From contig JAFGDH010000019.1 of the NCBI GenBank assembly GCA_016932215.1, positions 1,817 through 65,816 on the forward strand: a DNA stretch of 64,000 nt, given 5' to 3'. Source of the DNA: Candidatus Aenigmatarchaeota archaeon. GTDB lineage: Archaea > Aenigmatarchaeota > Aenigmatarchaeia > QMZP01 > QMZT01. The translations under genes were made by a program, and so were the position numbers. How positions within the stretch are numbered: position 1 is the stretch's first letter; the number at the start of each line of letters is the position of its first letter. The notes under the pieces are model-generated. The model was not told the origin of the DNA. It searched no databases and was given only the letters and a program-made list of their open reading frames with translations. Of the stretch, positions 7,606 through 42,341 are shown one piece after another.

Positions 7606-7624
7606 TTAACTACTTAATAGTTAA
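7606..7624. promoter_or_regulatory. near-palindromic motif TTAACTACTTAATAGTTAA (site 1 of 3), candidate HTH-dimer operator
   Basis: Seen directly. Half-sites TTAACTA / TAGTTAA around CTTAA. Lies between divergent genes 6993..7583(-) and 7677..8009(+), next to a TATA-like ctttataaag. Confidence 0.5.
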
Positions 7625-7676
7625 AATTATCCTTTATAAAGCTTATTTTTATGCTTTTTGAGACAATATAGATAGT

Positions 7677-8009
7677 ATGGTTGACAAATACCTGAATTCC
7701 GGCGAGAGAGTGATCTTCGTGACAAAGAACGAGGTCAGGGTAGGCGAGGACAAGGGCTTCCAGGCTTTCGTGACCAACCAGCGCCTGATCTTCCTCAATC
7801 GCAGAGGTTTCGTGTTCAAGAAGGACAAGATGAAAGACGCCCTTCTCAAGAACGTCAACGGCGTCAATCTGGAGGAGAAGGGGTTCCTCCGGAAACGAAA
7901 AGAAATGGAGATCCGCTCCCATGGCGAGAACTTCAGGCTGTTCGGAGACCATTCCGACCTGACCGGCCTTCACCGGGTCATAAACGAGCGGCTTGCGGCA
8001 ATTGTCTAA
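7677..8009 (+). CDS. bacterial-type PH (bPH/YdbT-like) domain protein
   Basis: 110 aa. GERVIFVTKN..VTNQRLIFLNRRG pattern typical of bPH domains. Confidence 0.45.
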   Translation: MVDKYLNSGERVIFVTKNEVRVGEDKGFQAFVTNQRLIFLNRRGFVFKKDKMKDALLKNVNGVNLEEKGFLRKRKEMEIRSHGENFRLFGDHSDLTGLHRVINERLAAIV

Positions 8010-8413
8010 TGTCCCTGAACGCATTTTTCGGAGACATACAGTTCCACGCTGTCCTTTATTCTTCCGCTGTTCCTTTCTTCGACGCTTGCTGTCAAAATTA
8101 CATTCTTTCCCGCGAAGCTTTTCAGGTTAATCTCCTGATCGCACTTCATATAAGTAAGACCTGTTCCGGTGTTGTGCATGTATGAACAGTCCAGAGCGGA
8201 GCCCGTGGCAACGTTCGAACCCCTTTCCGTAATGCTGAAGTCCGCGTTTCTGAGATCGTAACCGGTTGCTGTAACCACGAGATTGGTGCTTGTTCCAGTT
8301 CTTTCCCCGTCTGCGGGTTCCAGTATTTCGATGGTTGGAACGTTGTCCTGTCCGAGTGCGTTCAGGGGCATGATAGCGAGCAAAAGGATAATTAACACGA
8401 AAGCGAATTTCAT
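8006..8413 (-). CDS. secreted protein
   Basis: Signal peptide MKFAFVLIILLLAIMPLNALGQD. 135 aa. Confidence 0.45.
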   Translation of the reverse strand: MKFAFVLIILLLAIMPLNALGQDNVPTIEILEPADGERTGTSTNLVVTATGYDLRNADFSITERGSNVATGSALDCSYMHNTGTGLTYMKCDQEINLKSFAGKNVILTASVEERNSGRIKDSVELYVSEKCVQGH

Positions 8414-8748
8414 CCTCCCACCTCCTGCTTGATGGTTGGAGGAAAGTCTTACCCGTGTTTCGGTTTTCTTCGGTTTTTACCGAAAAGAAATCTTCACCTG
8501 GTAATAAACGAACAGCTGCTTGTGAAGTGATAATCATTTCTTTACTGAGGCTCCGTTTTCCATGGGATTTCCGTGTAATTGGAGAAAACCCTGCAATAAA
8601 CGGAAGGAACCTCAATCTCGGCGCCTATTAACGTGGGTTTTCCGATGAACATGTAAAACAGCCTGGGTTCATCAGGAAAGTCTCCTATTAAATCCTTTAT
8701 TATTGCGCTTTTTGACATTTTCATTTCAATACCTTGAATAAATAGAAC

Positions 8749-9780
8749 TCAGCTATTTAACTGCTTCCCGTAGCACCCACCCGAGAAGTACTGGTCGTCC
8801 GTGCAGACCGATCCGTCCGGGAGGACACATACACCGTTAGAGTATTCACCATACCTGTCCATGCAATCGCCTTTCGCCGGCGGGAGCGTTCCGGGGTATA
8901 TCCTGGAATGGCACTCCCTCTCCCTGCAGATGTATTCCGGGTTCAGGTAGTCGCACTGCTCGTCCGTCTGGCAGCATGAGGCGCAGTAGCATTCCCCGAA
9001 TTCGCTGCATTTGGCGTTCGGGTAAAGATGCGTGCACCCCATCCCCCTGCAGTCCACGTTGAACTCGCATCCCCTCGTGAGCTGGTTTATCTTGATCGAT
9101 TCCACTTTACCGTTCTCCACGACCACTATCGCCTCGTACGTGTCCACCACGTCTTTCGTGCTTGAATCGGTCACGAAGCTGTATACGTATTCCCAGCAGA
9201 ACCTGCAATCCAGCTGCCTTACGTTCTGGAAGGTGATGTCCCTCCCGTTCTTCGTCAGGTACGTCTCGCTCTTCCTGATCTCCTTTTCAGCCGTGATCTT
9301 GGACAGTTCTGCTGTGTAGGTCTTGACGAATTCGCCCCCGGAGTATTCGCATCCGAGTATTCCGTACTGCAGGTCGCAGTCCATGGTGCACTCGTTCGTT
9401 TCCTTCGGCTCCTCGCCGCTCCTGTAGCATTCGCAGTCGCACCTCGAAAGCACCGGTTCCCTGAAAGATGTGCAAAGGTCAGCCTCGTCGCAGAATCCCG
9501 GCTGCATTGCCATTTTGCACGCATCGCTTTCCTGTCCCGGAGCGACGAGAGGGCAAGAAATGACGGAATCGTCGATCGCAATCAGCTCGAAACCCTTTCC
9601 GGGGGTCTCGTAAACGACCTTCAGATAATTATCAACGCACGCGTGCACGCTTGACACTTCAGCGTTCCCGCACAGCGGTTCCGCCCTCTGGATGAAATAT
9701 CCTGTGATACATCCGGAGTTGGCTATAATGAAGATCATGCCCAGAAGCACGAATATCCACAGGAATTTATGCGTTGCCAT
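8749..9780 (-). CDS. secreted cysteine-rich protein (343 aa)
   Basis: N-terminal signal/TM followed by more than 30 Cys in repeated C..C patterns. Confidence 0.5.
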   Translation of the reverse strand: MATHKFLWIFVLLGMIFIIANSGCITGYFIQRAEPLCGNAEVSSVHACVDNYLKVVYETPGKGFELIAIDDSVISCPLVAPGQESDACKMAMQPGFCDEADLCTSFREPVLSRCDCECYRSGEEPKETNECTMDCDLQYGILGCEYSGGEFVKTYTAELSKITAEKEIRKSETYLTKNGRDITFQNVRQLDCRFCWEYVYSFVTDSSTKDVVDTYEAIVVVENGKVESIKINQLTRGCEFNVDCRGMGCTHLYPNAKCSEFGECYCASCCQTDEQCDYLNPEYICRERECHSRIYPGTLPPAKGDCMDRYGEYSNGVCVLPDGSVCTDDQYFSGGCYGKQLNS

Positions 9781-10359
9781 ATCCTTTCTATGTGGGTAAA
9801 TTTTATATACTTTTCACCATATGATAGTAAATAAAAATATTATTTTTTATGGTTCAACCATGGTTTTTATTTGTTCGGTCCAATGAAGGGTATGGGAAGA
9901 GGATGGGTACCAGCCAGAGAAATATATGCTTTTCTTGAACAGGGCAACGCAGTGAAATTAACATATAAGATCCGTCTCTGCCTAAATACTTCAGGGTCAG
10001 GAAATTATACCAGATTCACGATGTAACCGAAGATTGTATTGTTCTCAGAGATGGTAATGGAAAAAAATATCATGTTAATTCTGCTTATCTCCAGGCCAAA
10101 CGACCTTCATGGATGCGTGGATGAATATGGCCGAAAATGAGCGTACTTCTGCGAAATATTTTATCGGCGGAATGCCGTATATATTCGCTGCAGTCCTTAT
10201 GGCAGGCGTAACGACGAATCTGAGCGAATTTTATGATCAAAAATCGGAAATCATCGGCAAGGCGATTAACGGGGTGCCTCTTTCTGTGGAAACTGATCAG
10301 AAATTATACAAAATGATCGGTGAACAAAATTTATATTAAGCCGGCATCAACATAATAAT

Positions 10360-10881
10360 ATGGCATATCGCATCAAAGCACTTATTATCTTCGTCATAGG
10401 CGTGATAATAGCAGCATCCGGGATAGTGATTTTGATCCAGTTCCCGGACCTTTTCCAGGAGAACACCAAGACATATTCCTTCGCGATAATGCTGGTGGGT
10501 CTCGTTTTTGTGGCCTTCGGCGCGGTGTGGGGGAAGAAGAGGATAGTAAAGGAAAAGAAGAAGGGCGACTTCTTTTCCCAGGCCATGAAGAAGTTCGACG
10601 ACAAGGGAAAGGGAAAGAAGGAAGAAAAACCCAAGGAAAAGAGGAAGGGCAGGGGATTTTTCGGCAGGATGAAGGACAAGAAGGAAAAGCCGGAAGAGCC
10701 CGCAAAGGAGGAGCTCTCCGGGAAAAAGCTGGATTCCTTCCTCAACACGGCGGAAAAAAACGTCGTCAAGATATACATATGCCCGGGATGCGGGTCGGAG
10801 AACCCGGAAGGGCACAAGTTCTGCTCCGAGTGCGGGAAGAAGCTGAAGTTTCTGAAACCCCCGAAAAAGGGAAAGAAATAG
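10360..10881 (+). CDS. membrane-anchored Lys/Glu-rich protein with C-terminal zinc ribbon
   Basis: Two N-terminal TM helices, a KKEEKPKEKRKG low-complexity linker, and CPGCGSEN..HKFCSECGKK. Confidence 0.5.
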   Translation: MAYRIKALIIFVIGVIIAASGIVILIQFPDLFQENTKTYSFAIMLVGLVFVAFGAVWGKKRIVKEKKKGDFFSQAMKKFDDKGKGKKEEKPKEKRKGRGFFGRMKDKKEKPEEPAKEELSGKKLDSFLNTAEKNVVKIYICPGCGSENPEGHKFCSECGKKLKFLKPPKKGKK

Positions 10882-10917
10882 GTCCGTTTTTATATTGTTT
10901 CGTTCCAACTATATTCT

Positions 10918-13623
10918 ATGCGTGGTGTCGGGCGGGTCATTTTAGCCGTTCTGGTGATATTTTTCGTGATACTTTCCATAGTCATGAGCATATACGCCGA
11001 CCTTTTCTGGTTCCTCATGCTGGGATACGAGAACGTTTTCCTCACGATCCTGTTCACCCGTCTGGAGCTGTGGTTCCTGTTCTTCTCGCTGTTCTTCATT
11101 TTTGCGCTGGTTAACATAGGCGTTGCCAAGAGAACGTGCATGGGGAAGGGGAAGAAGAAGAGGAAGACGAAGACCGAGGACAGGATAACGATAATGGTTT
11201 CGTTCTTCATTTCCGTCATAATAGGCTCGGTCTTCTCGAACTGGGAGGTCGTCCTCAGGTACCTCAACCAGGTCCCCTTCCAGGGGAACGATCCGGTATT
11301 CGGCCTGAACATAGGGTTTTACGTTTTCGATCTTCCGTTGTACTCGTTCCTTATAGGATTCGCGGCAGCGACCGTCGTCCTCACGCTCGTCATAACCTTC
11401 ATTTCCTACGCAGTCTATTCCCAGTCCTTCAGGAAGCAGGAGCCGGGCGAGAATGCCGTGCTCCAGATGCCTAATGTCCCTTCCTATACCATAGACATGA
11501 AGGCGATGGAGAAGAAGGTCGTCCCCCATGCCAGCTTCCTTATAGGGTTGCTATTTATTGTGATTTCCGTTGCCCTCTTCTTCGGGAGGTACGGTCTTCT
11601 GTTTTCCCCGGCCGGTGTCGTGTTCGGGGCGGGGTACACCGACATACACATAATGCTACCTCTGATCACGTTGCTTTCGGTCGTTGCCTTCATAGTCGGC
11701 ATACTGTTCATTCTCAACTTCAGGATGAACAGGACCGGCCTGATACTCAAGCTGATAGGAGGCTTCATAGCCATAGCGGTTCTCGGGATGATCGTCTCCG
11801 GAGTGACACAGGCGTTCATCGTGACACCGAACGAGTACAACCTCGAGAGCGAGTACATAGGGAGGAACATCAATTTCACGCTTGCCGCATACGGTCTCGA
11901 CAGCATGAACGAGAGGATATTCCCGATCTCCTACAACCTTTCCGGTTCTGACATAGAGAAGAATTCCGGGACAATAGACAACATCCGCCTGTGGGACTGG
12001 AGGCCGCTGATGATCACATACAACCAGCTCCAGCTTTTCCGTACATACTACAGCTTCTGGGACGTGGACATAGACAGGTACAAGATAAACGGCGGCTACA
12101 AGGAGGTCATGCTTTCCGCGAGGGGGCTGGACACGGGGAACCTCCCGGAAAAGGCAAAGACGTGGATAAACGAGCACATGGTTTACACGCATGGTTACGG
12201 GCTTGTCATGAACCCGGTGGATAAAGTCACCGCTGACGGCCAGCCCGAGTTCTACATGCAGGACATACCCCCCAAATCAGATTATTTCACGGTCGACAGG
12301 CCGGAGATATATTACGGCGAAGGGATGAATGAATACGCCCTGGTGAAAACGACGACAGAGGAATTCGATTACCCCAGCGGCGAGCAGAACATTTACACCA
12401 GCTACGAGGGGACCGGCGGCGTTCCGCTTTCCGACGGTTTCAGGCGGCTGGTCTATGCAGTCAATTTCGGTTCAATCGAGCTCCTGCTTTCGGGTTCGCT
12501 TACAGAAGAAAGCCGTGTCCTGATGTACAGGGACATAGGCGAGAGGGTATCGTCCATCGCTCCCTTCCTGTCGTACGACCGTGACCCTTACATAGTCCTT
12601 TCGAACGGGAGGCTGTACTGGATGCTTGACGCTTACACGACGACTGACATGTATCCATACTCCGAGCCGATGTACGTCGGCAAGAGGAGCTATTTCAACT
12701 ATATCAGGAACTCCGTTAAGGTGGTCGTGGACGCATACAACGGTGACGTCACATTTTACGTGATCGACAGCGACGACCCCGTGATCAAAGCATACGGGAA
12801 GATGTTCCCCGGGCTTTTCGAGAGCTTCGAGAGCATGGATCCGGACCTGAAGGACCACATTCGCTATCCTGAGGACCTTTTCAGCATACAGGCGGCCCTT
12901 TACTCCGAATATCACATGAACGATCCGAGGGTGTTCTACAACAAGGAAGACACCTGGGTTATTCCTAACGAGATATACAGGGGTTCCAGGCAGGAGATGC
13001 AGCCCTACTACGTTATAGTCAGGCTTCCCGGGTACGAGAAGGAGAAGTTCATATTGATGATACCGTTCATACCGAGGGGGAAGGAGAATCTCATCGGCTG
13101 GATGGCGGCTGTGTCGGACTTCCCGGACTACGGCAACCTGGTGGTCTACAAGTTTTCCAAACAGGAACTCACTTACGGTCCGATGCAGATAGAGGCCAGA
13201 ATCGATCAGGACACCGAGATATCCCAGCTCATCACACTCTGGTCCCAGGCCGGGTCCGACGTGATCAGGGGAAACACGCTGGTCATACCTATCGAAGACT
13301 CGATCGTCTACATAGAACCGTTGTATTTGGAAGCGACAGAAAAGGGAACCCTTCCCGAGCTGAAGAGGGTCATAGTGGTATACGGGAACGACCTGGTGAT
13401 GAAGGATACACTCGCTGACGCTCTGGCGGATGTGTTCGGAAGCGTGACCAGCGTCCCGCAGAAGCCTCCGGCAGGCCTTCCAACGACTTCAGACGAGACA
13501 CTGTCGCAGATATCCGATCTTTACGGCAGGGCCCAGTCATCCCTCAGGACGGGCGACCTGAAGACTTATGCAGAATACATGGAACAGATAGAGCAGCTTC
13601 TCGAGAACTGGAAATCCTCTTAA
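10918..13623 (+). CDS. large polytopic membrane protein, UPF0182/COG1615-like
   Basis: 901 aa. About 7 N-terminal TM helices, then a large soluble domain. Size and architecture fit UPF0182; family assignment from memory only. Confidence 0.5.
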   Translation: MRGVGRVILAVLVIFFVILSIVMSIYADLFWFLMLGYENVFLTILFTRLELWFLFFSLFFIFALVNIGVAKRTCMGKGKKKRKTKTEDRITIMVSFFISVIIGSVFSNWEVVLRYLNQVPFQGNDPVFGLNIGFYVFDLPLYSFLIGFAAATVVLTLVITFISYAVYSQSFRKQEPGENAVLQMPNVPSYTIDMKAMEKKVVPHASFLIGLLFIVISVALFFGRYGLLFSPAGVVFGAGYTDIHIMLPLITLLSVVAFIVGILFILNFRMNRTGLILKLIGGFIAIAVLGMIVSGVTQAFIVTPNEYNLESEYIGRNINFTLAAYGLDSMNERIFPISYNLSGSDIEKNSGTIDNIRLWDWRPLMITYNQLQLFRTYYSFWDVDIDRYKINGGYKEVMLSARGLDTGNLPEKAKTWINEHMVYTHGYGLVMNPVDKVTADGQPEFYMQDIPPKSDYFTVDRPEIYYGEGMNEYALVKTTTEEFDYPSGEQNIYTSYEGTGGVPLSDGFRRLVYAVNFGSIELLLSGSLTEESRVLMYRDIGERVSSIAPFLSYDRDPYIVLSNGRLYWMLDAYTTTDMYPYSEPMYVGKRSYFNYIRNSVKVVVDAYNGDVTFYVIDSDDPVIKAYGKMFPGLFESFESMDPDLKDHIRYPEDLFSIQAALYSEYHMNDPRVFYNKEDTWVIPNEIYRGSRQEMQPYYVIVRLPGYEKEKFILMIPFIPRGKENLIGWMAAVSDFPDYGNLVVYKFSKQELTYGPMQIEARIDQDTEISQLITLWSQAGSDVIRGNTLVIPIEDSIVYIEPLYLEATEKGTLPELKRVIVVYGNDLVMKDTLADALADVFGSVTSVPQKPPAGLPTTSDETLSQISDLYGRAQSSLRTGDLKTYAEYMEQIEQLLENWKSS

Positions 13624-13635
13624 ACAGTCAAAAAA

Positions 13636-14427
13636 TCAGGCCATGTGTTTCTTCACTATCTCTACCATCTTCTCATGATGGATGCCGTTGCTGGAGACGG
13701 CTGCAGGCCGTTCCTGCCCCCTCACCGGGACGTATGTGAACTTCCCGCCGGCTTCCCTTACTATCACGTCTCCCGCCGCTATGTCCCACGGCTTCGGGTC
13801 GTTGTGGAACCCGTAATCCATCCCGCCTTCCGCTATCATGCACAGTTCGATGGAACAGCAGTGGAGCATCTTCCTCCCGAGATGAGGGACTGTTTTGAAG
13901 AACTCCCTGATTATTTTCTGGCATTTTTCCACCCGCTTCTTGTCTGTATGCGAGTCAACCACGAGGCAGGGCAATCTCATACTTTCGTCTGAAACCCGGA
14001 GCCTTTTCGTTTTCCCTTCATGCTCGACGTATGCCCCGCTCCCCTCGGAGGCGAAATACAGTTTTTTGAAGAAAGGGGCGTAGACCACTCCTATTATCCC
14101 CTTCCCGTTGTGGCGAACGCCCATCGAAACGGCGAACACGGGATCCCCGCGAACGAAGTTGTTCGTCCCGTCCAGGGGATCGATCACCCATTCGTATTCG
14201 TTCCCCTTCTTGTCCGGGTTCTCCTCGCTCACTATCCCGTGGTCCGGGTACTTCTCATGTATCGCATTCCTTATGAAGCTGTCGCTTTCCATGTCCGCTT
14301 CCGAGACGAAGGAGTAATCTGCCTTCACTTCAGAATTCAGTTCCTCAGCCTCGAAATACTTCAGAAGTATTTCCCCCGCCTTCAGGGCTATCCCCTTCGC
14401 AAATTCGAGAAGCTCGGAATTGTCCAT
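13636..14427 (-). CDS. inositol monophosphatase / FBPase-IMPase family protein
   Basis: WVIDPLDGTNNFVRG metal-binding motif and downstream GG..D-rich active-site blocks. 263 aa. Confidence 0.85.
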   Translation of the reverse strand: MDNSELLEFAKGIALKAGEILLKYFEAEELNSEVKADYSFVSEADMESDSFIRNAIHEKYPDHGIVSEENPDKKGNEYEWVIDPLDGTNNFVRGDPVFAVSMGVRHNGKGIIGVVYAPFFKKLYFASEGSGAYVEHEGKTKRLRVSDESMRLPCLVVDSHTDKKRVEKCQKIIREFFKTVPHLGRKMLHCCSIELCMIAEGGMDYGFHNDPKPWDIAAGDVIVREAGGKFTYVPVRGQERPAAVSSNGIHHEKMVEIVKKHMA

Positions 14428-14538
14428 ATCATCACAATTAGAATAAATTCGGATTCAGATATAAAAATCCCGTTTTTAAAATAATAAATGGTTTTCGCGG
14501 GTCAACCTTTATGATCCCGCCTGGACCGGGGTGATTTT

Positions 14539-15210
14539 ATGGAAACAGAAAGAGTGGGTATTCCTCTTCTCGGAGAGAAATTTCCCGATATGACGGTCAA
14601 GACTACGCACGGTATTCTTGAGCTGCCGAAACATTTTGCGGGAAAATGGTTTGTGCTTTTCAGCCACCCGGGTGATTTTACGCCCGTTTGCACCACGGAA
14701 TTCGTCAGCTTCGCGAAGAAGAACAACGAATTCAGAAAACTCGGGAGCGAGCTAATCGGTCTTTCGATAGACCAGGTTTTTTCCCATATAAAGTGGGTGG
14801 AGTGGATAAAGGAGAACCTCAAGACCGAGATACCTTTTCCCGTTATAGCCGACGACATGGGAAACGTTTCAAAGAAGCTGGGTATGATACACCCGGGCAA
14901 GGGTACGAACACGGTGAGGGCGGTTTTCATAGTCGATCCGAATGGGTTCCTGAGGCTGATGGTTTATTACCCGCAGGAGATCGGGAGGAACATGGACGAG
15001 ATACTCAGGGCGCTTAAGGCTCTTCAGGTGTCCGACGCCAACAAGGTTGCCATGCCTGCGAACTGGCCGAAAAACGAGCTGATCGGTGATCAGGTCATAG
15101 TTCCCCCGGCGAGCGACGTGAAAACGGCCGAGATGAGAAAAAATCAGAAGGAATACAAATGTTATGACTGGTGGCTGTGCTACAAGAAGCTGCCGGAAAA
15201 TAGGAGGTGA
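14539..15210 (+). CDS. peroxiredoxin (AhpC/TSA, Prx6-like)
   Basis: [13 protein letters not shown] peroxidatic-Cys motif, 223 aa. GGTGA Shine-Dalgarno-like sequence upstream. Confidence 0.85.
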
Positions 15211-15503
15211 TTTGTGTGTTGTCTAAAATACCTATTGATTTGTCAAAAGTGAGAAAAGAGGATATTGATACCGAGATAATGCGTGCGGGCGTCATTGCCG
15301 AGCTGGATGCCATAAACCTTTACGAGCAGATGGCCGCGCTCGCCGGCGACGAGAACCTCAGGAAGGTGCTCCTTGCCATAGCCAAGGAAGAGAAGGAGCA
15401 CGTCGGCGAGTTCCAGACCCTTCTTCTAAGGGCGGACAAGGAGCAGGTAAAGGAGATGGAAGAGGGGAAGAAAGAGGTCGAGGAGATGACGGGGGTGTCC
15501 TGA
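15207..15503 (+). CDS. small ferritin-like / rubrerythrin-family diiron-like protein
   Basis: 98 aa. E..LYEQMA and [12 protein letters not shown] (E..H) pairs. GTG start overlaps the prx stop (GTGA). Confidence 0.45.
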
Positions 15504-15877: not shown

Positions 15878-15926
15878 ATGACTATGAACTGCCTGATTGA
15901 GTGAAGTCAGGCAGCCGGAATTTTTT

Positions 15927-16568: not shown

Positions 16569-16648
16569 AAATTTTTATTTTGATCTTTCGGCGTTTGCCG
16601 AAGAAATCGGGATGGTTTATAAGGGGCCTAATGGAATAATATATTGAG

Positions 16649-17116: not shown

Positions 17117-17359
17117 GTCCCTTCCCCTTCTTTCCCGTAAAACGGAAAGTATTTATTCTGCCGGCAAAATATTATATTATAAAAGAGGTGTCTGCATGGG
17201 ATGCTGTTGCGGGAGCAGTAAGAAAAAGAAGTGATAATAGGCCATAAGGGGTGTTTTAATGGGATTTGTTCAGAAAATCAGGGGTTTGTTCAAGAAAAAT
17301 AAAAAAGTTGCGGCAGAGCCTGCATAGGGTAATCCAATTGCTGACTTGGCGGGATCGGT

Positions 17360-18498: not shown

Positions 18499-18558
18499 TT
18501 TATTTTCGGCCAAGACCGAAACATTCCGAATGGTTTATAAACGGTCTTCTTTTAATAA

Positions 18559-19155
18559 TTGATTATGGCAGATGACAAGATCACCCTGGACAGGGATACT
18601 TTCAAGACGCTGGCTTCAGGGACCAGGGTCGATATCCTGAAGTCCCTGGACAGCCGGAGGAAGACGCTTTCGGAGCTTTCCAATCAGTTTTCGATGTCCG
18701 TCTCCACGATCAAGGAACACCTGGACAATCTGGTAAAGGCCGGCCTGATAGAACAGGAGGACGACGGCCACAAGTGGAAGTATTACGACCTGACGAAGAA
18801 GGGCAAGCGTATTTTACATCCAGAGGACGCCAGGATATGGATAATGCTCGCCGTATCGGCGTTCGCCCTTTTGGGGATAGGGTACGACATGATCTCGAGA
18901 TACATGTTCTCTCCGTTCTATTCCGCCGCAGCGAACGCTCCCGACGCGCTGATCAGGAGCACCGAAGCCGGGAAGGAGATCGCACAGGCGCCCATGGCCG
19001 GGGGAACGGCAGAAACCTTTGGCCAGGCCGCAGTCCAGACAATCCCCTGGCTGCACATAGCCGGAATAGTCGTCTTTGGCATACTTCTTGGCTTATGCGT
19101 GGGATACGTCATAATGGCCAGAAAAAGGACTTCCGGGATGTTCGAACAGGCGTGA
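18559..19155 (+). CDS. ArsR-type winged-helix regulator fused to C-terminal membrane segments
   Basis: ASGTRVDILKSL..LSELSNQFSMSVSTIKEHLDNLVKAGLI matches the ArsR HTH. Two C-terminal TM helices. Confidence 0.6.
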   Translation: MIMADDKITLDRDTFKTLASGTRVDILKSLDSRRKTLSELSNQFSMSVSTIKEHLDNLVKAGLIEQEDDGHKWKYYDLTKKGKRILHPEDARIWIMLAVSAFALLGIGYDMISRYMFSPFYSAAANAPDALIRSTEAGKEIAQAPMAGGTAETFGQAAVQTIPWLHIAGIVVFGILLGLCVGYVIMARKRTSGMFEQA

Positions 19156-19603: not shown

Positions 19604-19607
19604 TACC

Positions 19608-31434: not shown

Positions 31435-31499
31435 GATAACAAATAAATTGTACTATAGGGAAATCTTTATAAGGACAATTTCCCAAATATACAATAAAT

Positions 31500-33209: not shown

Positions 33210-33225
33210 TCCTTCAGTTTCTCTT

Positions 33226-33912: not shown

Positions 33913-34011
33913 ATTATCCGGTCGCGTTTTGATTTATATTTTTATCCTAAATACCGACTTTTCCGTGGTGAAAATGGTTATATTTATATGATTTCCGGCC
34001 ATGATTAACTC

Positions 34012-34338: not shown

Positions 34339-34380
34339 GAGGGATATTAAATTTTTTAAGCCCCGATCCAATCTTATAGC

Positions 34381-34890
34381 ATGTACCATCTGTTCTTCGT
34401 GATAGCGCTGGGGTGCTTCGGCTATCATACCATCATACACGTCCTGGAGTATTTCGGACTCTTCAAGGCAAACGAGCGGGTGCATTTCTCCATAGGGATA
34501 GCCATGTTCTTTGGCTGGCTTTCGTATTTCTACATGTCCTTCTTCGACCCGTTCATGACCGGGATAAGCGCCTACATAGTGTTCGGCGTCCCCATGCTGA
34601 TCGCAGGCTTCTGCCTCTTCTTCGAGTCCCACAGGAAGGTCCATAAAAGGATGCACCACGGGAAAGGCCCGTTAGTCAGGGACGGCGTCTACAAATACCT
34701 CCGCCACCCCATGTACCTGGGCGAGATACTCATGTTCCTGGGGGCTCCGATCCTCGGAGGGAGCATGCTGACCCTGATGATATCGTCGGTCTTCATAATG
34801 ATGGTCCTGATCTGGCGGTATTTCGAGGAGAGCGAGCTCATGGAAAGGTATCCGGAATACGAGGAATACAGGAAGAAGACGATATTCTAG
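34381..34890 (+). CDS. isoprenylcysteine carboxyl methyltransferase (ICMT)/PEMT-family membrane methyltransferase
   Basis: Four TM helices, then GVYKYLRHPMYLGEILMFLG..W...EE..L, the ICMT-family C-terminal signature. Confidence 0.7.
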   Translation: MYHLFFVIALGCFGYHTIIHVLEYFGLFKANERVHFSIGIAMFFGWLSYFYMSFFDPFMTGISAYIVFGVPMLIAGFCLFFESHRKVHKRMHHGKGPLVRDGVYKYLRHPMYLGEILMFLGAPILGGSMLTLMISSVFIMMVLIWRYFEESELMERYPEYEEYRKKTIF

Positions 34891-34926
34891 TCACTTATTT
34901 ATTTCCGCATCCACAAATCTGAACAC

Positions 34927-35667
34927 ATGGACAAAGATCACGTCAAAAAAATAGTCAAAGAGAACTACGGAAGGATAGCTGAGAACAGGGGATGCTGCAG
35001 GTGCGGATGCTCCAAGGGAACGGAGCAGGTATCCAAAGAAATAGGATACTCCGACGACGACCTGGCGAAATTCCCCGAGGCGAACATGGGCCTGGGGTGC
35101 GGGAACCCGACGGCAATAGCAAACATAAGGCCGGGAGACACCGTTCTCGATCTGGGAAGCGGGGCAGGTTTCGACGCCTTCCTGGCCGCTGACAAGACGG
35201 GTAAAGCCGGTAAGGTCATAGGAGTGGACATGACCGAAAAGATGATCGAGAAGGCAAGGACGCTCGCACTGAAGCACGGCCATTCGAATGTTGAATTCAG
35301 GCTAGGTGACATAGAATCCCTTCCAGTCGAAAGCGGAACCATAGACGTGATAATCAGCAACTGCGTGATAAACCTCGCCCCGGACAAATCAGCCGTCTTC
35401 GGTGAGGCGCACATGGTCCTCAGGCCCTCCGGGAGGATGTTCGTCTCCGATATCGTGCTTTTGGAGGAGATCACGGGAGAGCAGAGGAACGACCATCGCC
35501 TTCTGACCGGTTGCGTGGCGGGCGCCCTGCTCAAGGACGATTACATACGCCTGATAGAAAAGGCCGGTTTCGAGGTCCGTGTAATCAGCGAGAACAAGGG
35601 CATAAGCAAGGAACAATATCAGGGCATTCCCCTGGAGAGTCTCGCGGTAGAGGCGACCAAAAAATAA
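34927..35667 (+). CDS. ArsM-like class I SAM-dependent methyltransferase
   Basis: Motif I VLDLGSGAGFD, motif II KVIGVDMT, Cys cluster GCCRCGCS near the N-terminus. Confidence 0.7.
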   Translation: MDKDHVKKIVKENYGRIAENRGCCRCGCSKGTEQVSKEIGYSDDDLAKFPEANMGLGCGNPTAIANIRPGDTVLDLGSGAGFDAFLAADKTGKAGKVIGVDMTEKMIEKARTLALKHGHSNVEFRLGDIESLPVESGTIDVIISNCVINLAPDKSAVFGEAHMVLRPSGRMFVSDIVLLEEITGEQRNDHRLLTGCVAGALLKDDYIRLIEKAGFEVRVISENKGISKEQYQGIPLESLAVEATKK

Positions 35668-35668
35668 T

Positions 35669-35863
35669 TCATTCTTCGAACACGAACAGTTCTTCTATCT
35701 TGGCCCCGAGAGCCTTAGCTATGTCATGAGCCAGCCGAAGCGACGGGTTGTACTTACCCTTCTCCAAAAAGACGATGGTCTCCCTCCTGACCCCGACCTT
35801 ACGGGCGAGATCCTCCTGGGTCATCCCGTGCTTCGCCCGGAACTCCTTTATCCTGGTCTTCAC
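35669..35863 (-). CDS. XRE-family (Cro/CI-type) helix-turn-helix regulator, 64 aa
   Basis: [50 protein letters not shown] start preceded by AGGTGA. Confidence 0.7.
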
Positions 35864-35873
35864 TAATTCACCT

Positions 35874-35951
35874 TCATTCCCCTTTCCTCCCGAACCAGAA
35901 GTACATGATGAAGAAGAACAGCGAGGACCCGAGTATAACCCCGATCGTCAT
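35874..35951 (-). CDS. 25-aa single-TM peptide ORF immediately upstream of the XRE gene (not in ORF track)
   Basis: [25 protein letters not shown]. Its stop lies 10 nt before the XRE GTG, with AGGTGA between them. Resembles the widespread small-TM plus XRE two-gene arrangement. Confidence 0.3.
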
Positions 35952-36040
35952 GTAGGTCCCGACAATGCTCCAGTCCCCAGTCCTCTCCGCTATCTCGTTG
36001 ACTTCCCTTTGGCGGAAAATAACCTTTATATACCAATAAA

Positions 36041-36058
36041 TTAACTACTTAATAGTGG
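36041..36058. promoter_or_regulatory. shared motif TTAACTACTTAATAGTGG (site 2 of 3), flanked by TATA-like boxes
   Basis: Seen directly. Lies between the divergent XRE operon and the HExxH gene at 36103. ctttatatacc is upstream and tttatatataat downstream. Confidence 0.5.
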
Positions 36059-36102
36059 TTTATATATAATAGGTCTATAGTGGGGTTTGGGAGTCAGTTG
36101 AA

Positions 36103-36975
36103 ATGAGAAGATATGGTACCGGGGACATGACCGAAGAGGTATACAGGAACGAAATAAGCAGATACGGGAACGTGGGTGAATTTATAAAAAACAGGCCCGA
36201 TCTTGCTCCCGCTTTCGTGAAGTGTTTCGAAGACTGGATTAATTCAGATGTTTCCCTCGTTATAGAAGAGAGGTCAGGGAAAAAGGCGGGTCCGGCTGAG
36301 ATATTTATTCATGTTGGAAACAGGGCTTATACTGACGGGAAAAAAGAAATTTACATACCGGTTTCATATACCTTTCCTTTGATGACGGGGGCTTCCGTCC
36401 ATGAAAGGTTGCATTTCTATCCGGAAGTAAATGAGAGCGCTTTATCGTATCATGAAGAGAAAATAAGGGAATCAAAAACTATTCTTGAAAATGGCGGAAA
36501 GATAGGAAGGGAGTATATTTTGCATTTTTTTAAAACCCTTACAGGAAAGCATTTCGATTCATTAGTTGGTCATATCATATCCGAACTGATAGCTTACACT
36601 GAAACAGGGCCCGTTTTGAATGAGGCAAAAGTTCCGTTCGGGATAGATCCGAAGCCCTATTTTGATATGTGGGAAAAAAATCTGAAAAATGAAAAAAATA
36701 CTTTTGAAAGATATGAGGAAAGGGAACTTTTAATCACACCTGAAAGCTTTTATAATGAACTGATAAAATGGTACCAGTATTATTCTTTTGCTCGTCGCCC
36801 GAACGACGTCATGAAAGGGAATATCATTCCTTTAGTCTCGACACAATTTTCCCATTACGCTAAAATCGTGAACGGTTTTGACGAGATGCCCCCGTCCGAA
36901 TTATGGTCGCTGGAACCCGAGAAATTCGTTGAAGAATACAACAGGAAGGTAAGGAAACTGAAGTCGGGGAAATAG
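36103..36975 (+). CDS. HExxH-motif protein (putative zinc metallopeptidase), 290 aa
   Basis: GASVHERLHFYPE. Divergent from the XRE regulator. Confidence 0.45.
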   Translation: MRRYGTGDMTEEVYRNEISRYGNVGEFIKNRPDLAPAFVKCFEDWINSDVSLVIEERSGKKAGPAEIFIHVGNRAYTDGKKEIYIPVSYTFPLMTGASVHERLHFYPEVNESALSYHEEKIRESKTILENGGKIGREYILHFFKTLTGKHFDSLVGHIISELIAYTETGPVLNEAKVPFGIDPKPYFDMWEKNLKNEKNTFERYEERELLITPESFYNELIKWYQYYSFARRPNDVMKGNIIPLVSTQFSHYAKIVNGFDEMPPSELWSLEPEKFVEEYNRKVRKLKSGK

Positions 36976-37001
36976 ATTGTTTTTCCTATCCTTCCCCCGA
37001 C

Positions 37002-38051
37002 CTATAACCCCCAGTCCTCTCCGCTATCTTCGGATAAAAATTCCCGCCAGTGTCTTTTTTTGATGAAGTCGGACATCTCCTTCCTTCTCTCCGCTTCTTC
37101 CCGGTATTCCTTTATGCGGTCTCTTAAGGTGGGCATTATAAATTCTATCTCGCGCCCATAGTGATTGAACCTGTCAATGTCCGCGAAAGCCAGATTTTCA
37201 GGGTACTCGTTTGCATATCCGCGCATCATGGAAATCAGGTGATTTGCATGCCTGATTTCAGGTGCATATATTATTTTATCTGGCAGCTCCTGCTCTAAAA
37301 GAGAGATTTCCCTTTCTGCATTTTCAATACTCGTCTCGTATTTGCTTATGGTAATGAACATCCTGTTCATCATTACCGGGGTTTTCCACCACATTATGTC
37401 AAGGTATCTCTTCCAGTCGTCTATTTTTGAATCTTCCCCTGATAATCTGGGGCATGTCCTTATGTTGTATCCGGTTATGGGGCTTCCGTTTTCCCACCAG
37501 AACAGATCCGGATGCTCTTTTATCACCACTGAAAACACTTCTTCCATTTCCGGGATGAGTATCTCTTCCTTTGTCTTCAGGTTCAGGCCGGGGAAATCCT
37601 TCCTGTAATCGTAGGAATGGATAAGGACCAGATTTTTATCCGGGTATTGCTCTGTGAACATGGCAAGCTTCATGAGCGCAACAGTACTGATTGATTTGTT
37701 TCTCCATGAACCCTTGACTTCGATGTAATCTCCGGTACTTGGTATGAAAAAGTCAGGGGTATAATTCGTTATTCCCGAATTGGTTATCTCTTTTTTCATG
37801 GTCACCGTTAACGGGAAATACTCTTTCTCGTAAACATAATCGAACCCTGCGACTTTGAGACATCTCGCAATGTTTGCCTCCTGCATGGACCTTACGCTGT
37901 GACCCAGGTCATACCTGTATCCCGCCAGCGGGGTCCCCGTGTTTCCTGACAAAAAAGCACCGTCAACCTGGTTAGGAGCACTGCCTTCAGCCAGCTCAAT
38001 GTCTCCGAAACCGGGATGTCTCATATATCCCTCGATGAAAGGTTTGCTCAT
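37002..38051 (-). CDS. PD-(D/E)XK nuclease-fold domain protein with uncharacterised C-terminal domain, 349 aa
   Basis: E(ANIA)...YTPDFFIPSTGDYIEVKG fits the E / PD / D-x-(E)VK arrangement of restriction-endonuclease-like nucleases. Last gene of a 4-gene minus-strand operon. Confidence 0.5.
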   Translation of the reverse strand: MSKPFIEGYMRHPGFGDIELAEGSAPNQVDGAFLSGNTGTPLAGYRYDLGHSVRSMQEANIARCLKVAGFDYVYEKEYFPLTVTMKKEITNSGITNYTPDFFIPSTGDYIEVKGSWRNKSISTVALMKLAMFTEQYPDKNLVLIHSYDYRKDFPGLNLKTKEEILIPEMEEVFSVVIKEHPDLFWWENGSPITGYNIRTCPRLSGEDSKIDDWKRYLDIMWWKTPVMMNRMFITISKYETSIENAEREISLLEQELPDKIIYAPEIRHANHLISMMRGYANEYPENLAFADIDRFNHYGREIEFIMPTLRDRIKEYREEAERRKEMSDFIKKRHWREFLSEDSGEDWGL

Positions 38052-38155
38052 GTTTTATAAATAGACATAAATTTTTTAACTGGAGAATTCATTCATTCCC
38101 GACATATAAGCCCCCACCTTCTTAGCTATCTCATTGACCTCTTTTTAGTGTAGAT

Positions 38156-39019
38156 TTACAATAAGAGCTTTTCAATATTTTCCTTAACGACATCGATTTT
38201 TGCGAAATCCTGGATAAAATTATTCCCAACCTGATAGTTAAATGTTATTCTATGACAATTTTTTATTTTCCTGGCTAATTCATGGATCGGGTATGAAAAA
38301 AACAATCTTCCCGCGGGATTTTTTTTCATTTCATTCATCACCGCATCTTTAGATGTATCATAACCAAGCCTGGAAAGAACGGTATCTTCAAGCCTGAGCG
38401 CAATTGCTTCGTCAAAAATACCCATTGTTCCGAGTAATGCTAACATATCCTCAGCAAAATCCCTCCTTTCACGGGTAGTTTTCTTAAATTTCAATTTCAG
38501 GTTTCCCCTCTTATTAACCAGTTTTGCAGGAAAATCATCTCCATTTATAATGTTGCTCAATATTCCCTCTGCGACAACTAATGGGTGATTCTGAAGGGCA
38601 AACCCGATAAAATGATTATATTCATGAATATATGGTGCAATAAAACTGGGGTAATTCGGGTTTCTTGATTTTTCCTTGACAAATCCCTTTTCCGGAAACG
38701 AGAATAACGGATATGATGTTATGGCATTTTGGTAATTTATTCTCCCGTCAGATGAAATTTCAAGGCTTCTGTCATAAGTGGTGGAAGCAGTGAACATGGC
38801 ATCATCAAAACCCCCAAAAAATATGCCGGTACCTATTTTATTTAGTTCCCTGACAGTTTTTTCATCCGTGAAGCTGGACGGCCCAAGTAATCTCTTAGAT
38901 TCGCTATCCAGAAGATGAATATCATCCATTAAAATATCAGAATAGATTTGCATCAATTGATTTCTATATTTTTCCAGTTCTTCTTTTAAGCCCGTGCTGT
39001 TTCCAAAGTATTCTAGCAT
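38156..39019 (-). CDS. HExxH-motif protein (putative metallopeptidase), 287 aa
   Basis: APYIHEYNHFIGF. 20-nt gap to the upstream gene. Confidence 0.45.
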   Translation of the reverse strand: MLEYFGNSTGLKEELEKYRNQLMQIYSDILMDDIHLLDSESKRLLGPSSFTDEKTVRELNKIGTGIFFGGFDDAMFTASTTYDRSLEISSDGRINYQNAITSYPLFSFPEKGFVKEKSRNPNYPSFIAPYIHEYNHFIGFALQNHPLVVAEGILSNIINGDDFPAKLVNKRGNLKLKFKKTTRERRDFAEDMLALLGTMGIFDEAIALRLEDTVLSRLGYDTSKDAVMNEMKKNPAGRLFFSYPIHELARKIKNCHRITFNYQVGNNFIQDFAKIDVVKENIEKLLL

Positions 39020-39038
39020 AATGCATAACCTCTTTAGC

Positions 39039-40826
39039 CTAAACGTCTTCCCAGACGAAGTCCTGCCATCTTCTGTCGATTATCTTTTGAAGGTGGAATT
39101 CCTTGAGCATTTTATAAACGTCATTTCTTGTCAAATAAAATACGCCGGGGTTTTTCTCCATACTATTCAGTTCACTGATTGTTTTCTCATCGCCGAATTT
39201 TTCGATGTATTCCCTCCCTGAAATTAATTTATCCATTTTTCTATGTGTCACTGGATCGAAACCCATTTTCATGGACTGACTTATTTCGTCAGAAAAAAAC
39301 AAGCCACCCTCATAACTCATCCCTATCATATTCAGCCCAATCCCGTACCGATTTTCTATCAGCTCAGCTTCCTCTCTCAGACGCAATTGATTAATCACCT
39401 TATCTATCTTGGACGGGTCTTCTGCCCCGACAATCAGAACTCGGCGCCCGTCGGGAAATATGCGAGGCTCGGTCCCCGGTCTTTGGAAATTCGAGGTATC
39501 TTTTACGACTTTCGTATAAAACTCTCTTGCTTTTGCAAGATACCGGAAAACTCTTTCCGGAATGGCTTTGTGTATCCTGTAATATACTTCCAGAAGGTTG
39601 GCTGAGGTTCCGCTCGAATACCTGAACTGTGAATCCATTCCCCGGTCCAAAAAGCCCTTCCTCACGGCCTCCCTGAATTTCTGCACGTCTTCATTTTCAA
39701 AATTACGCCAGAAACCTATCCCCGTGCCCTTTTCAAGATATTTCATGAAATCGTCAATATCCTCGTCGAAACATCTTAGTATTGTGGGCAATATTCTTGT
39801 TGAAATGGCATGCCTCCAGAACCTGTTGGATGTTACATGACCGGACGGCAATACTATGTTATCGTCTTCTGAAATCCTGTAATCGAAATCCTCAACGAAC
39901 GAACATATCATGCTTTCTAACATTTCATCGTATTCCATGACATCCTTGTAGCTCTTTAGCAGTTCCAGCATGTTTTTCATTTCCCCCGACACGATACCTT
40001 CCCCCAAAAATTCGTTCGTCTTTTTAACGTGTTCCATCTGATGCCTTTTCAGTATCTTTTGTATTTCCGTGACTCTTGCGGTTGCATGGGTTTCGTTTCT
40101 GTCGCTCATGAAATGCTGAAACACTATCGCATATTCCGGGCTCAGTGATATGTGCGGTTCCTCTTTTGGCTGGTTTTCGAAGGTGCGGGTGGTTCCCCTG
40201 CAGTCATTAAGATAACGCATTATTCCGCGCCTGATATTCACATAGAGCTGGTAATTGAAATACATGCTTTTCGGGTCGTCTTCATATTCCCTGAAGTCAT
40301 TGAACTCCGGGTTTATTTCTCTTCCGAGAACATTGAATATTTCCCAGTCCCTGGGAGCGAGGGTTTCTCCTCTCAGCCAGTTTTCAACAGTGCTTACGTG
40401 CCTCTTTTTACCGTTCCTTTCAAGCGCATTAACTACCCATTCGGCCATCATCTCATAGTCTTCTTTAGCGAAATCATCAGTTTCATAGAGCGCCCTAGAA
40501 TCAATATCAGAATCGTCTATCACACCTTTTTCCGATAATCCCTTCAGAAGCAGGGTCCTTAATCTCGGAATGAAATCTCCCCTTGAATTCTGTTCGTGTA
40601 TCATCTCTTTTGAAAAGTGATATCTGGGGCTTTTGTCAAGATGTGGCTCAACATCCTCAAGATCCGTCTTTGCATAAGGCTTCTGGAATAAGACCATATC
40701 CCCGACATTGACATCGGCTACTTTCTTCTTAAGATAACTTGAAGGGGATACCTGAACATACACGTCTCCGGTTGGATCCAGAAATGAATCTCCCATTGTT
40801 GTTGATATCAAATATTTAGCTACCAT
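39039..40826 (-). CDS. large hypothetical protein, 595 aa
   Basis: Long ORF, no Walker or DDE motifs. 67-nt gap to the upstream rSAM gene. Confidence 0.55.
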   Translation of the reverse strand: MVAKYLISTTMGDSFLDPTGDVYVQVSPSSYLKKKVADVNVGDMVLFQKPYAKTDLEDVEPHLDKSPRYHFSKEMIHEQNSRGDFIPRLRTLLLKGLSEKGVIDDSDIDSRALYETDDFAKEDYEMMAEWVVNALERNGKKRHVSTVENWLRGETLAPRDWEIFNVLGREINPEFNDFREYEDDPKSMYFNYQLYVNIRRGIMRYLNDCRGTTRTFENQPKEEPHISLSPEYAIVFQHFMSDRNETHATARVTEIQKILKRHQMEHVKKTNEFLGEGIVSGEMKNMLELLKSYKDVMEYDEMLESMICSFVEDFDYRISEDDNIVLPSGHVTSNRFWRHAISTRILPTILRCFDEDIDDFMKYLEKGTGIGFWRNFENEDVQKFREAVRKGFLDRGMDSQFRYSSGTSANLLEVYYRIHKAIPERVFRYLAKAREFYTKVVKDTSNFQRPGTEPRIFPDGRRVLIVGAEDPSKIDKVINQLRLREEAELIENRYGIGLNMIGMSYEGGLFFSDEISQSMKMGFDPVTHRKMDKLISGREYIEKFGDEKTISELNSMEKNPGVFYLTRNDVYKMLKEFHLQKIIDRRWQDFVWEDV

Positions 40827-40892
40827 AATATAGTAAAAACAGTTAATTTTTTATATTAATTTATTAATGTTTCAGGCATATCAACCAAAAGA

Positions 40893-42038
40893 TTACCCAT
40901 CTGCAGACTTGTAAGCTCCCGTCCTCTTGGCTATCTCATTAACTTCCTTAGGATGGGAGAACAATGCACATGGGGTCCCCTCGTTTTCCAGAAGATGTTC
41001 GCTTTCGCGGATTTCCCTGAAGAGCTTGCTGGAGAAGGCTTCCCTGATTGTTGATTTCAGGAGGTTGTGGGTGGCGATGTTGGAGACCGGGCAGGGTGTC
41101 AGATCGCCGGTCGGGGTGACGTGAGCGAAGCCCTTGCCTGCCGAGACGCATCCTCCAAAGTATTCTTCGTCCCCTGGCGAGTGAATGAGGTAGATCTTCT
41201 TGGTTTCCCTGATCCTGAGGACGAAATCCCTGAACTCTTTCCTTTCCTCACTGGTGAGCATGAGCCTGTGATCATTGCCCCTCTGGGTGACCGGGATGTA
41301 TTCGATGAGGGCAGCGATCTTTATTCCCTTCGCTATGAGGGAATCGATGAGCTTTTCGTCCATCCAGTGGCGGAAGTTGTTCTTGGTTATTGTTGCGGAT
41401 ATTCCTGTTGGAATGCCTGCCTTTATTAGGGCCTGGATGGTCTTTTGTGCCTTTTCGTGGACACCATCGCCTCGTCTCTGGTCGGTCATTTCCTTCGTTC
41501 CTTCCATGCTGACCAGTACACACGTGTTTTTGCAGGATTTGAGTGTATTGATCTCTTTTTCCTGGATTGCTGTGCCATTGGTTAGTATTATGAACAGTCG
41601 GTCGGAGAAGTCTTTGCATATATGGGAGAGGTTGTCTGTAAGGAATGGCTCCCCTCCTGCTATTACGAAGCCAAAAACCCCTGCTTCCGATGACTTTTTG
41701 ATTATTTCTTTCCACTTGCTGCGGGATAGTTGTTTTTTCTCCTTTTTGGAGACGGTTCCTGCCGCCGAGGCATAGCAGCCCGCGCAGGCTAGGTTGCACA
41801 TGGAGGTTATGCTAAGAATCAGGAACGGGGGTATCTTGATCCCTTCCTTCTTTAGCCTGTCCCTGGTTTCGCTGGCCTTTTTGCAGGACTTCATCAATCC
41901 GAGGAAGGAACGGAAGTGGCCTGGATGAGCGACTGCCCATTTGAAGAAGACTTTCGTGAGGTTAGGATCGAGAGTGTTAAGGTATTTTCGGAAGGAGATG
42001 ACCCTTTTCAGAAGGCAGAAGTCTGAGATTTTCGCCAT
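40893..42038 (-). CDS. radical SAM protein with C-terminal SPASM/twitch-like Cys cluster
   Basis: CNLACAGC (CX3CX2C) at about residue 80, G-rich VIAGGEPF, and C-terminal GGC...C.....C cluster. Confidence 0.75.
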   Translation of the reverse strand: MAKISDFCLLKRVISFRKYLNTLDPNLTKVFFKWAVAHPGHFRSFLGLMKSCKKASETRDRLKKEGIKIPPFLILSITSMCNLACAGCYASAAGTVSKKEKKQLSRSKWKEIIKKSSEAGVFGFVIAGGEPFLTDNLSHICKDFSDRLFIILTNGTAIQEKEINTLKSCKNTCVLVSMEGTKEMTDQRRGDGVHEKAQKTIQALIKAGIPTGISATITKNNFRHWMDEKLIDSLIAKGIKIAALIEYIPVTQRGNDHRLMLTSEERKEFRDFVLRIRETKKIYLIHSPGDEEYFGGCVSAGKGFAHVTPTGDLTPCPVSNIATHNLLKSTIREAFSSKLFREIRESEHLLENEGTPCALFSHPKEVNEIAKRTGAYKSADG

Positions 42039-42124
42039 TTGAATAATGTGGATGTGATAATTTAAACGGTTTCCTTCGTTTGGCTCAGTTATGTCTTAAA
42101 AATAATAAACGATAATAACTGGAT

Positions 42125-42298
42125 ATGGATAACCCTGAGATCAGCTTCAGGAGTAAACTGCTAAAATACGGGGAAATTGTGATTCTGGGGGCAGCCATAG
42201 GAACTGGTCTGTTCCTTACGTGCAGGCAGGGTTATAGTCTGGCAAAAGGATATCTGACAGAGATCGAACGGTCGGTAGAAAATATGTACAGACCATAG
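42125..42298 (+). CDS. 57-aa ORF with one TM segment (not in ORF track)
   Basis: MDNPEISFRSKLLKYGEIVILGAAIGTGLFLTCRQGY... in the rSAM / DUF1704 intergenic region. Confidence 0.25.
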   Translation: MDNPEISFRSKLLKYGEIVILGAAIGTGLFLTCRQGYSLAKGYLTEIERSVENMYRP

Positions 42299-42323
42299 TC
42301 AAAATCACGTTTATAAAGAATAA

Positions 42324-42341
42324 TTAACTACTTTTAAGTGG
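42324..42341. promoter_or_regulatory. shared motif TTAACTACTTTTAAGTGG (site 3 of 3), between TATA-like gtttataaag and the ATG
   Basis: Seen directly. 7 nt upstream of the 42348 start, an operator-like position. Confidence 0.5.

Follow-up and report, generated by a model that had tools for sequence, protein, structure and literature searches.

A conserved TATA-adjacent dyad, putatively an operator, at three promoters of a Candidatus Aenigmatarchaeota archaeon

Do three promoters that share one short, nearly palindromic sequence answer to a single regulator? The question is raised by an 81.5-kb contig (JAFGDH010000019.1, assembly GCA_016932215.1; locus tags JW754_) of a metagenome-assembled genome labeled Candidatus Aenigmarchaeota. 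The 64,000 nucleotides (nt) from position 1,817 to position 65,816 were analyzed and are called the window here (GC content, ~0.49). The exact 10-mer TTAACTACTT occurs on the plus strand at three starts in the window (7606, 36041, and 42324) and nowhere else in it, and all three copies lie in promoters. A first-pass annotation of this DNA had read the copies as operators of a small regulon under one repressor, naming as candidate the product of an adjacent XRE-family helix-turn-helix (HTH) gene. Here, we report that the element is real, conserved, and of an ordinary kind, in an unstudied lineage. A small regulon under a single dimeric regulator is still the best reading; the XRE protein as that repressor did not survive the comparison with its own family.

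The three sites (Table 1) were found with exactly the letters and positions first given for them. The core dyad is 19 bp long and consists of two 7-bp half-sites around a 5-nt spacer (7-N5-7; TTAACYA-N5-TAGTKRW). It is perfect at site 1 only, where the 7-bp arms can be lengthened to 11 nt at 91%. A search of sites 2 and 3 for inverted repeats of at least 10 nt gave none; 4 to 5 of the 7 positions pair there in the 7-N5-7 register, with a conserved asymmetry between the halves, and another register, AACYACT-N4-AGTRRTT, pairs 5 to 6 of 7 (6 at site 2). Each copy does adjoin a TATA box, the offset from TATA start to motif start being 16, 16, and 14 nt for sites 1 to 3 (site 1 read on the minus strand, 7640 to 7624), and the gap from motif end to ATG is 28, 43, and 5 nt, respectively. 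Similarity among the three promoters stops at the TATA box and the motif. Archaeal TATA boxes are centered near −26/−27 relative to the transcription start; because the motif begins 14 to 16 nt after the TATA start, the dyad should cover about −16 to +4 and overlap the expected start, which we infer from the usual TATA position.

Table 1. Positions of the sites, promoter elements, and genes discussed (window coordinates)
Feature	Position	Strand	Description
Site 1	7606-7624		TTAACTACTTAATAGTTAA; TTAACTA-CTTAA-TAGTTAA
Site 2	36041-36058 (dyad to 36059)	+	TTAACTACTTAATAGTGG; TTAACTA-CTTAA-TAGTGGT
Site 3	42324-42341 (dyad to 42342)	+	TTAACTACTTTTAAGTGG; TTAACTA-CTTTT-AAGTGGA
TATA box, site 1	7633-7640		TTTATAAA; palindrome, can serve both strands; in 93-bp divergent intergenic region
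TATA box 1, site 2	36025-36032	+	TTTATATA
Second TATA-like box, site 2	36059-36069		TTTATATATAA; directly 3' of site 2
TATA box, site 3	42310-42317	+	TTTATAAA
Possible weaker site	9813-9831		TTCACCA-TATGA-TAGTAAA; adjoins TATA, in divergent region upstream of 8749-9780(−)
Possible weaker site	58178-58196		TTTACTA-TTTAT-GAGTAAA; 23 nt after TATA start, upstream of 56308-58152(−)
Target gene 1	6993-7577	−	194-amino-acid (aa) orphan, JW754_02615
Divergent neighbor of gene 1	7677-8009	+	110-aa bacterial-PH-domain protein (bPH_3, E=3.9e-07)
Target gene 2	36103-36975	+	290-aa orphan, JW754_02820; invariant HERLH
Target gene 3	42348-43493	+	381-aa protein of the MATCAP/DUF1704 metallopeptidase family
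XRE/HTH_3 gene	35669-35863	−	64 aa; HTH_3 E=6.7e-17; 178 nt from site 2
Membrane-protein remnant	35880-35996	−	residues 107-145 of 147; 79% identity
CCAA(A/C)TAT(A/T) examples, among 16 upstream regions	10890-10917, 31470-31499, 43505-43533		

The evidence that decides for the element is its conservation at orthologous promoters. A weight matrix was built from the three window sites only and scored on the 63 to 100 nt upstream of orthologous genes in related Aenigmatarchaeota contigs (the sequences compared carry L numbers). For gene 2, the promoters of L002 and L003 (62% and 54% protein identity) scored 20.8 and 22.5 bits; for gene 1, those of L004 and L007 (67% and 60%) both scored 22.5 bits; and for gene 3, that of L009 (50%) scored 15.8 bits. 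These five scores of 15.8 to 22.5 bits compare with a maximum of 14.1 bits among 1288 AT-rich control windows of 100 nt. The offset from TATA to motif is 16 to 17 nt in all five.

The individual promoters bear this out base by base. Upstream of the gene 2 orthologues, the TATA box is kept as CTTATATA in both L002 and L003 and is followed, after 8 nt, by TTAACCACTTAATAGTGAT (L002) or TTAACTACTTTTTAGTGAT (L003), differing from site 2 in the spacer and, within the half-sites, at positions 6 and 18. The gene 1 orthologues of L004, L005, and L006 carry TTAACTATAAAGTAGTTAA, with a single change, in the spacer, and that of L007 carries ATAACTATTAAGTAGTTAA, the only change being the first base (TTAAC to ATAAC); the palindromic TATA box of site 1 is identical in L004 and L007. 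The gene 3 orthologue (L009, likewise L010 and L011) has TTTATAAA, 9 nt, ACCACTA-TTATG-TAGTGAT, and then 3 nt to the ATG, the same position as at site 3, with a dyad symmetry of 6/7 (ACCACTA/ATCACTA). In L009, the non-TATA sequence around the motif has diverged from that of the window.

A relaxed form of the dyad (TTNACYA-N5-TRGTNAA, at most 2 mismatches) matched 16 times in the window against 6.6 ± 2.6 expected, and 0 of 100 shuffles reached 16. Two further promoter sites are among these matches (9813 and 58178), the first of them kept in L004, L005, and L006 as ATTACTATAATATGGTGAA; such weaker dyads may bind the same factor with low affinity or belong to a paralogue. The degenerate 16-mer TTAACTACTTWWWAGT has 3 copies against 0.00 expected in the window. 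A longer repeat family, which the first-pass annotation had named as the finding that would undo an operator, was not seen: the 20 largest direct-repeat families (out of at least 60) do not include the motif, and its three exact copies are all in promoters.

Position and conservation together make it rather probable that the three sequences are copies of one cis-regulatory, factor-binding operator. A dimeric transcription factor, encoded elsewhere in the genome, would bind the dyad; TBP and TFB would probably still load at the TATA box, and the bound factor, lying over the transcription start, would block the recruitment of RNA polymerase and so repress. It would co-regulate at least three unlinked genes, namely, the 194-aa orphan (perhaps with its bPH neighbor), the 290-aa HExxH orphan, and the MATCAP/DUF1704 peptidase. 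That the factor represses rather than activates falls a little short of an even call, and is less certain because the divergent gene has site 1 upstream of its TATA box and because two TATA-like boxes flank site 2.

Several observations weigh against an operator. The exact word alone is weak evidence within the window, because 636 different 10-mers have at least 3 copies there and because 16% of dinucleotide shuffles produce an 11-mer common to at least 3 intergenic regions, of which ATTAACTACTT is the sole case observed (in ~9 kb, intergenic or uncertain). The palindromes at sites 2 and 3 are poor, their halves differing in a conserved way (left, TTAAC; right, GTGRT), and the right half could partly reflect an initiator or a Shine-Dalgarno-like constraint (GTGAT) instead of protein contacts. 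The second TATA-like box downstream of site 2 is conserved (TTTATATATG in L002, TTTAGATATG in L003), and the motif there could precede a functional TATA box; this second box may be an alternative TATA for the 290-aa gene or serve minus-strand transcription toward the XRE remnant. The promoter of a MATCAP orthologue in another Aenigmatarchaeota genome (L008, 50%) has no motif (3.4 bits). In L004, the entire site 1 intergenic region, not just the motif, is highly conserved, and this is the least informative comparison because its DNA is ~78 to 81% identical to the window overall; L002, L003, L007, and L009 are much more distant. When metagenomes were scanned for TTATAWA-N5-10-TTAACYAYWWWDWAGTKRW, at least 120 loci matched, most of them in AT-rich contigs and compatible with chance, and clustering of the open reading frames within 3 kb of the motif on 33 higher-GC contigs gave no recurrent neighboring regulator. 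A viral collection yielded 6 matches, five at GC 0.35 or below and one, L217, at 0.42; in none was the archaeal promoter context convincing, and a viral origin of the motif was rejected on these grounds. What raises the motif above chance is its fixed place next to the TATA box, together with its conservation at orthologous promoters.

What else could place the same letters beside three TATA boxes? The motif might be a variant core-promoter/leader composite (proximal element, initiator, and GTGAT Shine-Dalgarno-like box) of a subclass of short-leader genes. It lies between the TATA box and the start codon, where proximal and initiator elements lie, the asymmetry of its half-sites is conserved, and AAC-ATG follows the right half, AGTGAT, in many of the metagenomic examples, GTGAT matching the archaeal Shine-Dalgarno core. 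This is nonetheless unlikely: only 3 of ~45 window promoters have the motif while the others have a different proximal element, the motif keeps a fixed distance from the TATA box but not from the ATG, site 1 is perfectly palindromic, and gene 1 has a strong Shine-Dalgarno sequence of its own further downstream (GGTGATC, directly 5' of the ATG). We give about the same low credence to an activator or dual regulator. Archaeal activators act directly upstream of the TATA box and its B recognition element (BRE), and the dyad has that placement at the bPH gene, where site 1 precedes the shared TATA box, and would have it at the 290-aa gene if the conserved second box directly after site 2 is functional; the weak site at 9813 likewise adjoins a TATA box from upstream, as seen from 8749-9780. 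Site 3, however, has its one TATA box upstream and the ATG 5 nt past the motif, which places the factor over the transcription start; most metagenomic examples have that same layout, and the constant offset is to the upstream TATA box. Common descent of duplicated promoter cassettes, or chance among AT-rich promoters, with no shared regulation at all, appears more improbable still. In its favor, TTTATAAAG(G/A)ATAAT precedes the motif at both site 1 (minus strand) and site 3, direct repeats flank the cassette that holds the gene at site 2, and the exact-word statistic is weak; but no two of the three downstream proteins are related, orthologous promoters retain the motif at 50 to 67% protein identity although the flanking non-TATA sequence has diverged (L009), and 0 of the 1288 control windows reached the orthologue scores.

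The adjacent XRE protein had been proposed both as the repressor of the three sites and as its own regulator, through the divergent promoter at site 2. The proposal has its attractions: the gene is close by on the opposite strand, its product is a true HTH_3 protein, and a minus-strand TATA-like box precedes the motif. Its family points elsewhere. Homologues that are 72 to 89% identical were compared at 80 loci (L012 to L091) from many archaeal and bacterial phyla (hosts included Methanocella, Bathyarchaeota, Woesearchaeota, Thermoplasmatota, and also bacteria), where the XRE gene follows a membrane-protein gene. Out of these 80 loci, 68 carry a different palindrome, T-GTTAKA-WATA-TMTAAC-A (GTTAKA-N4-TMTAAC), and none carries a motif of the TTAACTAC type at 17 bits or more. 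The family palindrome lies mostly in the promoter region of the operon (100 of 141 matches at −1000 to −400 from the XRE start), with 34 neighboring pairs exactly 21 bp apart (e.g., L014, 512-527 and 554-569). The recognition helix of L014, the closest homologue examined, is identical to that of the window XRE, so the latter should bind GTTAKA-N4-TMTAAC and not TTAACTAC.

No copy of GTTAKA-N4-TMTAAC was found near the window XRE gene. The operon there is 5'-truncated at ~35996, with the breakpoint ~45 nt away from site 2, and has lost its native promoter and operators. The proximity of the XRE gene to site 2 comes from this rearrangement, because the operon is truncated and because L003 has the same promoter with no divergent XRE gene; the upstream gene in L003 is on the same strand and looks by eye like an excisionase-type HTH gene (not searched). 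The family operator resembles the motif in being an AT-rich palindrome of HTH-dimer logic, with an XRE gene near site 2, but the sequences differ (GTTATAAATATATAAC versus TTAACTACTTAATAGTKRW), as do the half-sites and their orientation (GTTA...TAAC versus TAAC...GTTA, the latter at site 1 only) and the architecture (6-N4-6 versus 7-N5-7); its tandem copies, phased at 21 bp and far upstream of the XRE gene, have no counterpart at the three sites. We know of no description of this XRE-family operator. The XRE protein as regulator is largely refuted, and we regard that explanation as the least probable. The motif is independent of the XRE gene.

Two candidates of another kind were also set aside. 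An RNA-level function was rejected: no Rfam family matched at threshold anywhere in the window, the 7-bp arms are A/T rich, and most of the motif precedes the expected start. Only one other transcription-factor gene was recognized in the window; it encodes an ArsR-like winged-helix protein with transmembrane segments (18559-19155) and was set aside because its own promoter carries TTCGGC-N5-CCGAA and not the motif. That second dyad, as TTCGG-N6-CCGAA, has 3 copies in the window against 0.15 expected (16587-16602, 18505-18520, and 8469-8484). The first two stand ~29 nt before a TATA start in 44-nt promoter segments that are 70% identical, and the copy at 8469-8484 has no obvious TATA box. It may mark an autoregulated mini-regulon of the ArsR-like protein.

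Promoters in the window are otherwise of archaeal type, with a (G/C)TTTATAWA box 25 to 45 nt 5' of the start codon and many short-leader genes. Many of them share a proximal element, CCAA(A/C)TAT(A/T), ~8 to 15 nt 5' of the start codon, which appears to be a generic promoter-proximal element of this organism; in most other window promoters, a CCAA(A/C)TAT-like element occupies the place of the dyad.

Out of the three downstream proteins, one could be assigned with confidence. The product of gene 3 matched PF08014 (E=3.9e-33; 115.4 bits against the Pfam cut-off of 27) and keeps the invariant residues H206, E207, H210, E239, and G240 (HExxH and EGLA). The first-pass annotation had described two of the downstream genes as HExxH/QEGLA metallopeptidase-like; this one is a clear MATCAP/DUF1704 member, whereas the 290-aa product of gene 2 shares only the conserved HERLH. 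The latter had no Pfam match, no detectable relation to MATCAP (hhalign probability, 0.1%), and nothing credible when its family profile was compared with PDB sequences (best E, 0.056, Dispersin); an exhaustive hidden Markov model search found only 3 clusters of its family among 1.84 billion representatives, and the AlphaFold2 model of the family was unusable (mean predicted local distance difference test [pLDDT], 40.8). Neither homology to a known family nor a confident zincin fold was found to make it a metallopeptidase. The 194-aa product of gene 1 likewise had no Pfam family and only 3 clusters among 5.8 billion proteins, its family profile gave nothing credible against PDB sequences, and the AlphaFold2 model of its family had a mean pLDDT of 49.0. 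The divergent arrangement of gene 1 and the bPH gene is kept in L004, L005, and L006, and the bPH gene may be co-regulated with gene 1.

A genome-contig scan made with the MATCAP protein turned up no relative, and nothing relevant on DUF1704 in archaea was found in the literature. In L009 (10001-14460; likewise in L010 and L011), the MATCAP/DUF1704 orthologue lies two genes away from a pair of RimK-type ATP-grasp ligase genes; a mechanosensitive-channel gene stands between them, and a RimB-like aspartic protease gene then follows. This gene order hints at a system that might add and remove C-terminal amino acids. The MATCAP gene of the window has none of these neighbors.

Site 2 lies at the edge of a low-GC block (36.0 to 40.9 kb; GC, 0.40 to 0.43) that is bounded and split into three cassettes by four repeat copies of ~45 to 50 bp (~35960-36010, 36995-37030, 38085-38150, and 40890-40955). 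Gene 2 and its promoter form the first cassette; the others hold a 349-aa gene with a sub-threshold Phage_endo_I match and a pair of 287-aa and 595-aa genes. A 21-bp stretch is 100% identical between direct repeats at 35975-35995 and 37009-37029. Minus-strand translation of the repeat gives (K)EVNEIA(E/K)..G.., homologous to the breakpoint of the membrane-protein gene. The arrangement suggests serial integration at one att-like site.

Does the operator reach beyond this genome? Among the metagenome matches listed, 33 contigs had a GC content of at least 0.385 and an archaeal BRE/TATA context (AAAGCTTTATAAA). They show the TATA-N5-10-motif layout, often with AGTGAT-AAC-ATG and the ATG within 3 to 6 nt; some of these contigs, L136, L138, and L153, have two sites each. 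By a rough estimate, a few matches would arise by chance in archaeal promoters of that composition; the excess over that number, which has no proper control, is suggestive. A Pfam scan of ten proteins downstream of metagenomic sites gave one GGDEF, one metallophosphoesterase, and one sub-threshold Rbsn match, the rest having none. The same layout of TATA box, operator, and ATG on dozens of archaeal-looking contigs, several with two sites, raises the possibility, which we hold as doubtful, that the dyad serves as operator for a regulator common to the clade Aenigmatarchaeota, and perhaps to neighboring DPANN, that would co-control lineage-specific orphan genes. Under that same doubtful proposal, the gene set would include peptidase-like proteins, a GGDEF-like protein, a metallophosphoesterase, and small membrane proteins.

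DPANN archaea are uncultured, with reduced genomes and many orphan genes, and we found almost nothing published on the regulation of their transcription; a literature search on DPANN or Aenigmarchaeota regulons returned nothing relevant and no characterized regulon. A conserved operator groups by co-regulation three genes that are otherwise unrelated, including one for a MATCAP-type carboxypeptidase, and can be used as bait for finding its regulator. The analysis also corrects a tempting call of guilt by association, the neighboring XRE operon being a truncated remnant of a family that has its own, different operator. Were the clade-wide proposal true, the dyad would be the first cis-regulatory code to be reported from any DPANN lineage and would offer a way into genes whose function is otherwise unknown.

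Among known systems, the layout is closest to that of archaeal repressors whose operators lie between the TATA box and the transcription start, such as Phr of Pyrococcus furiosus, MDR1 of Archaeoglobus fulgidus, LrpA, and TrmB/TrmBL1; MDR1, Phr, LrpA, and TrmB act by blocking the recruitment of RNA polymerase. As in those systems, the dyad is short, lies immediately 3' of the TATA box, reaches over the expected start, and recurs at several unlinked promoters, a layout that would suit a dimeric winged-helix or HTH repressor acting against polymerase recruitment. Its letters match none of their operators. The Phr/HSR1 operator is TAAC-N5-GTTA, against TAAC-N9-GTTA at site 1; sites 2 and 3 are without GTTA, and at none of the three sites are TAAC/GTTA half-sites 5 nt apart. 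The TrmBL1 motif is TATCAC-N5-GTGATA, against a CAC-N9-GTG spacing here.

A further parallel is bacterial. In metagenomic locus L154, a perfect palindrome, TTAACTATAATATAGTTAA (229-260), directly precedes the gene of a 110-aa protein (280-612) that looks by eye like a member of the HxlR family, with neighbors that look like msrB and mscL (by eye also; no family search was made for any of them). L154 is bacterial looking (GGAGG Shine-Dalgarno sequence on a neighboring gene; GC, 0.34), and no HxlR gene was found among the related sequences examined. Bacillus YodB boxes have a TACT..AGTA core. The ACTA...TAGT core of the dyad is like that of HxlR/YodB (MarR-like) operators, although its spacing differs by ~1 nt from that of YodB. 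A redox- or electrophile-sensing HxlR-like protein is one possible regulator, and a MarR/HxlR-type factor is offered as no more than a lead.

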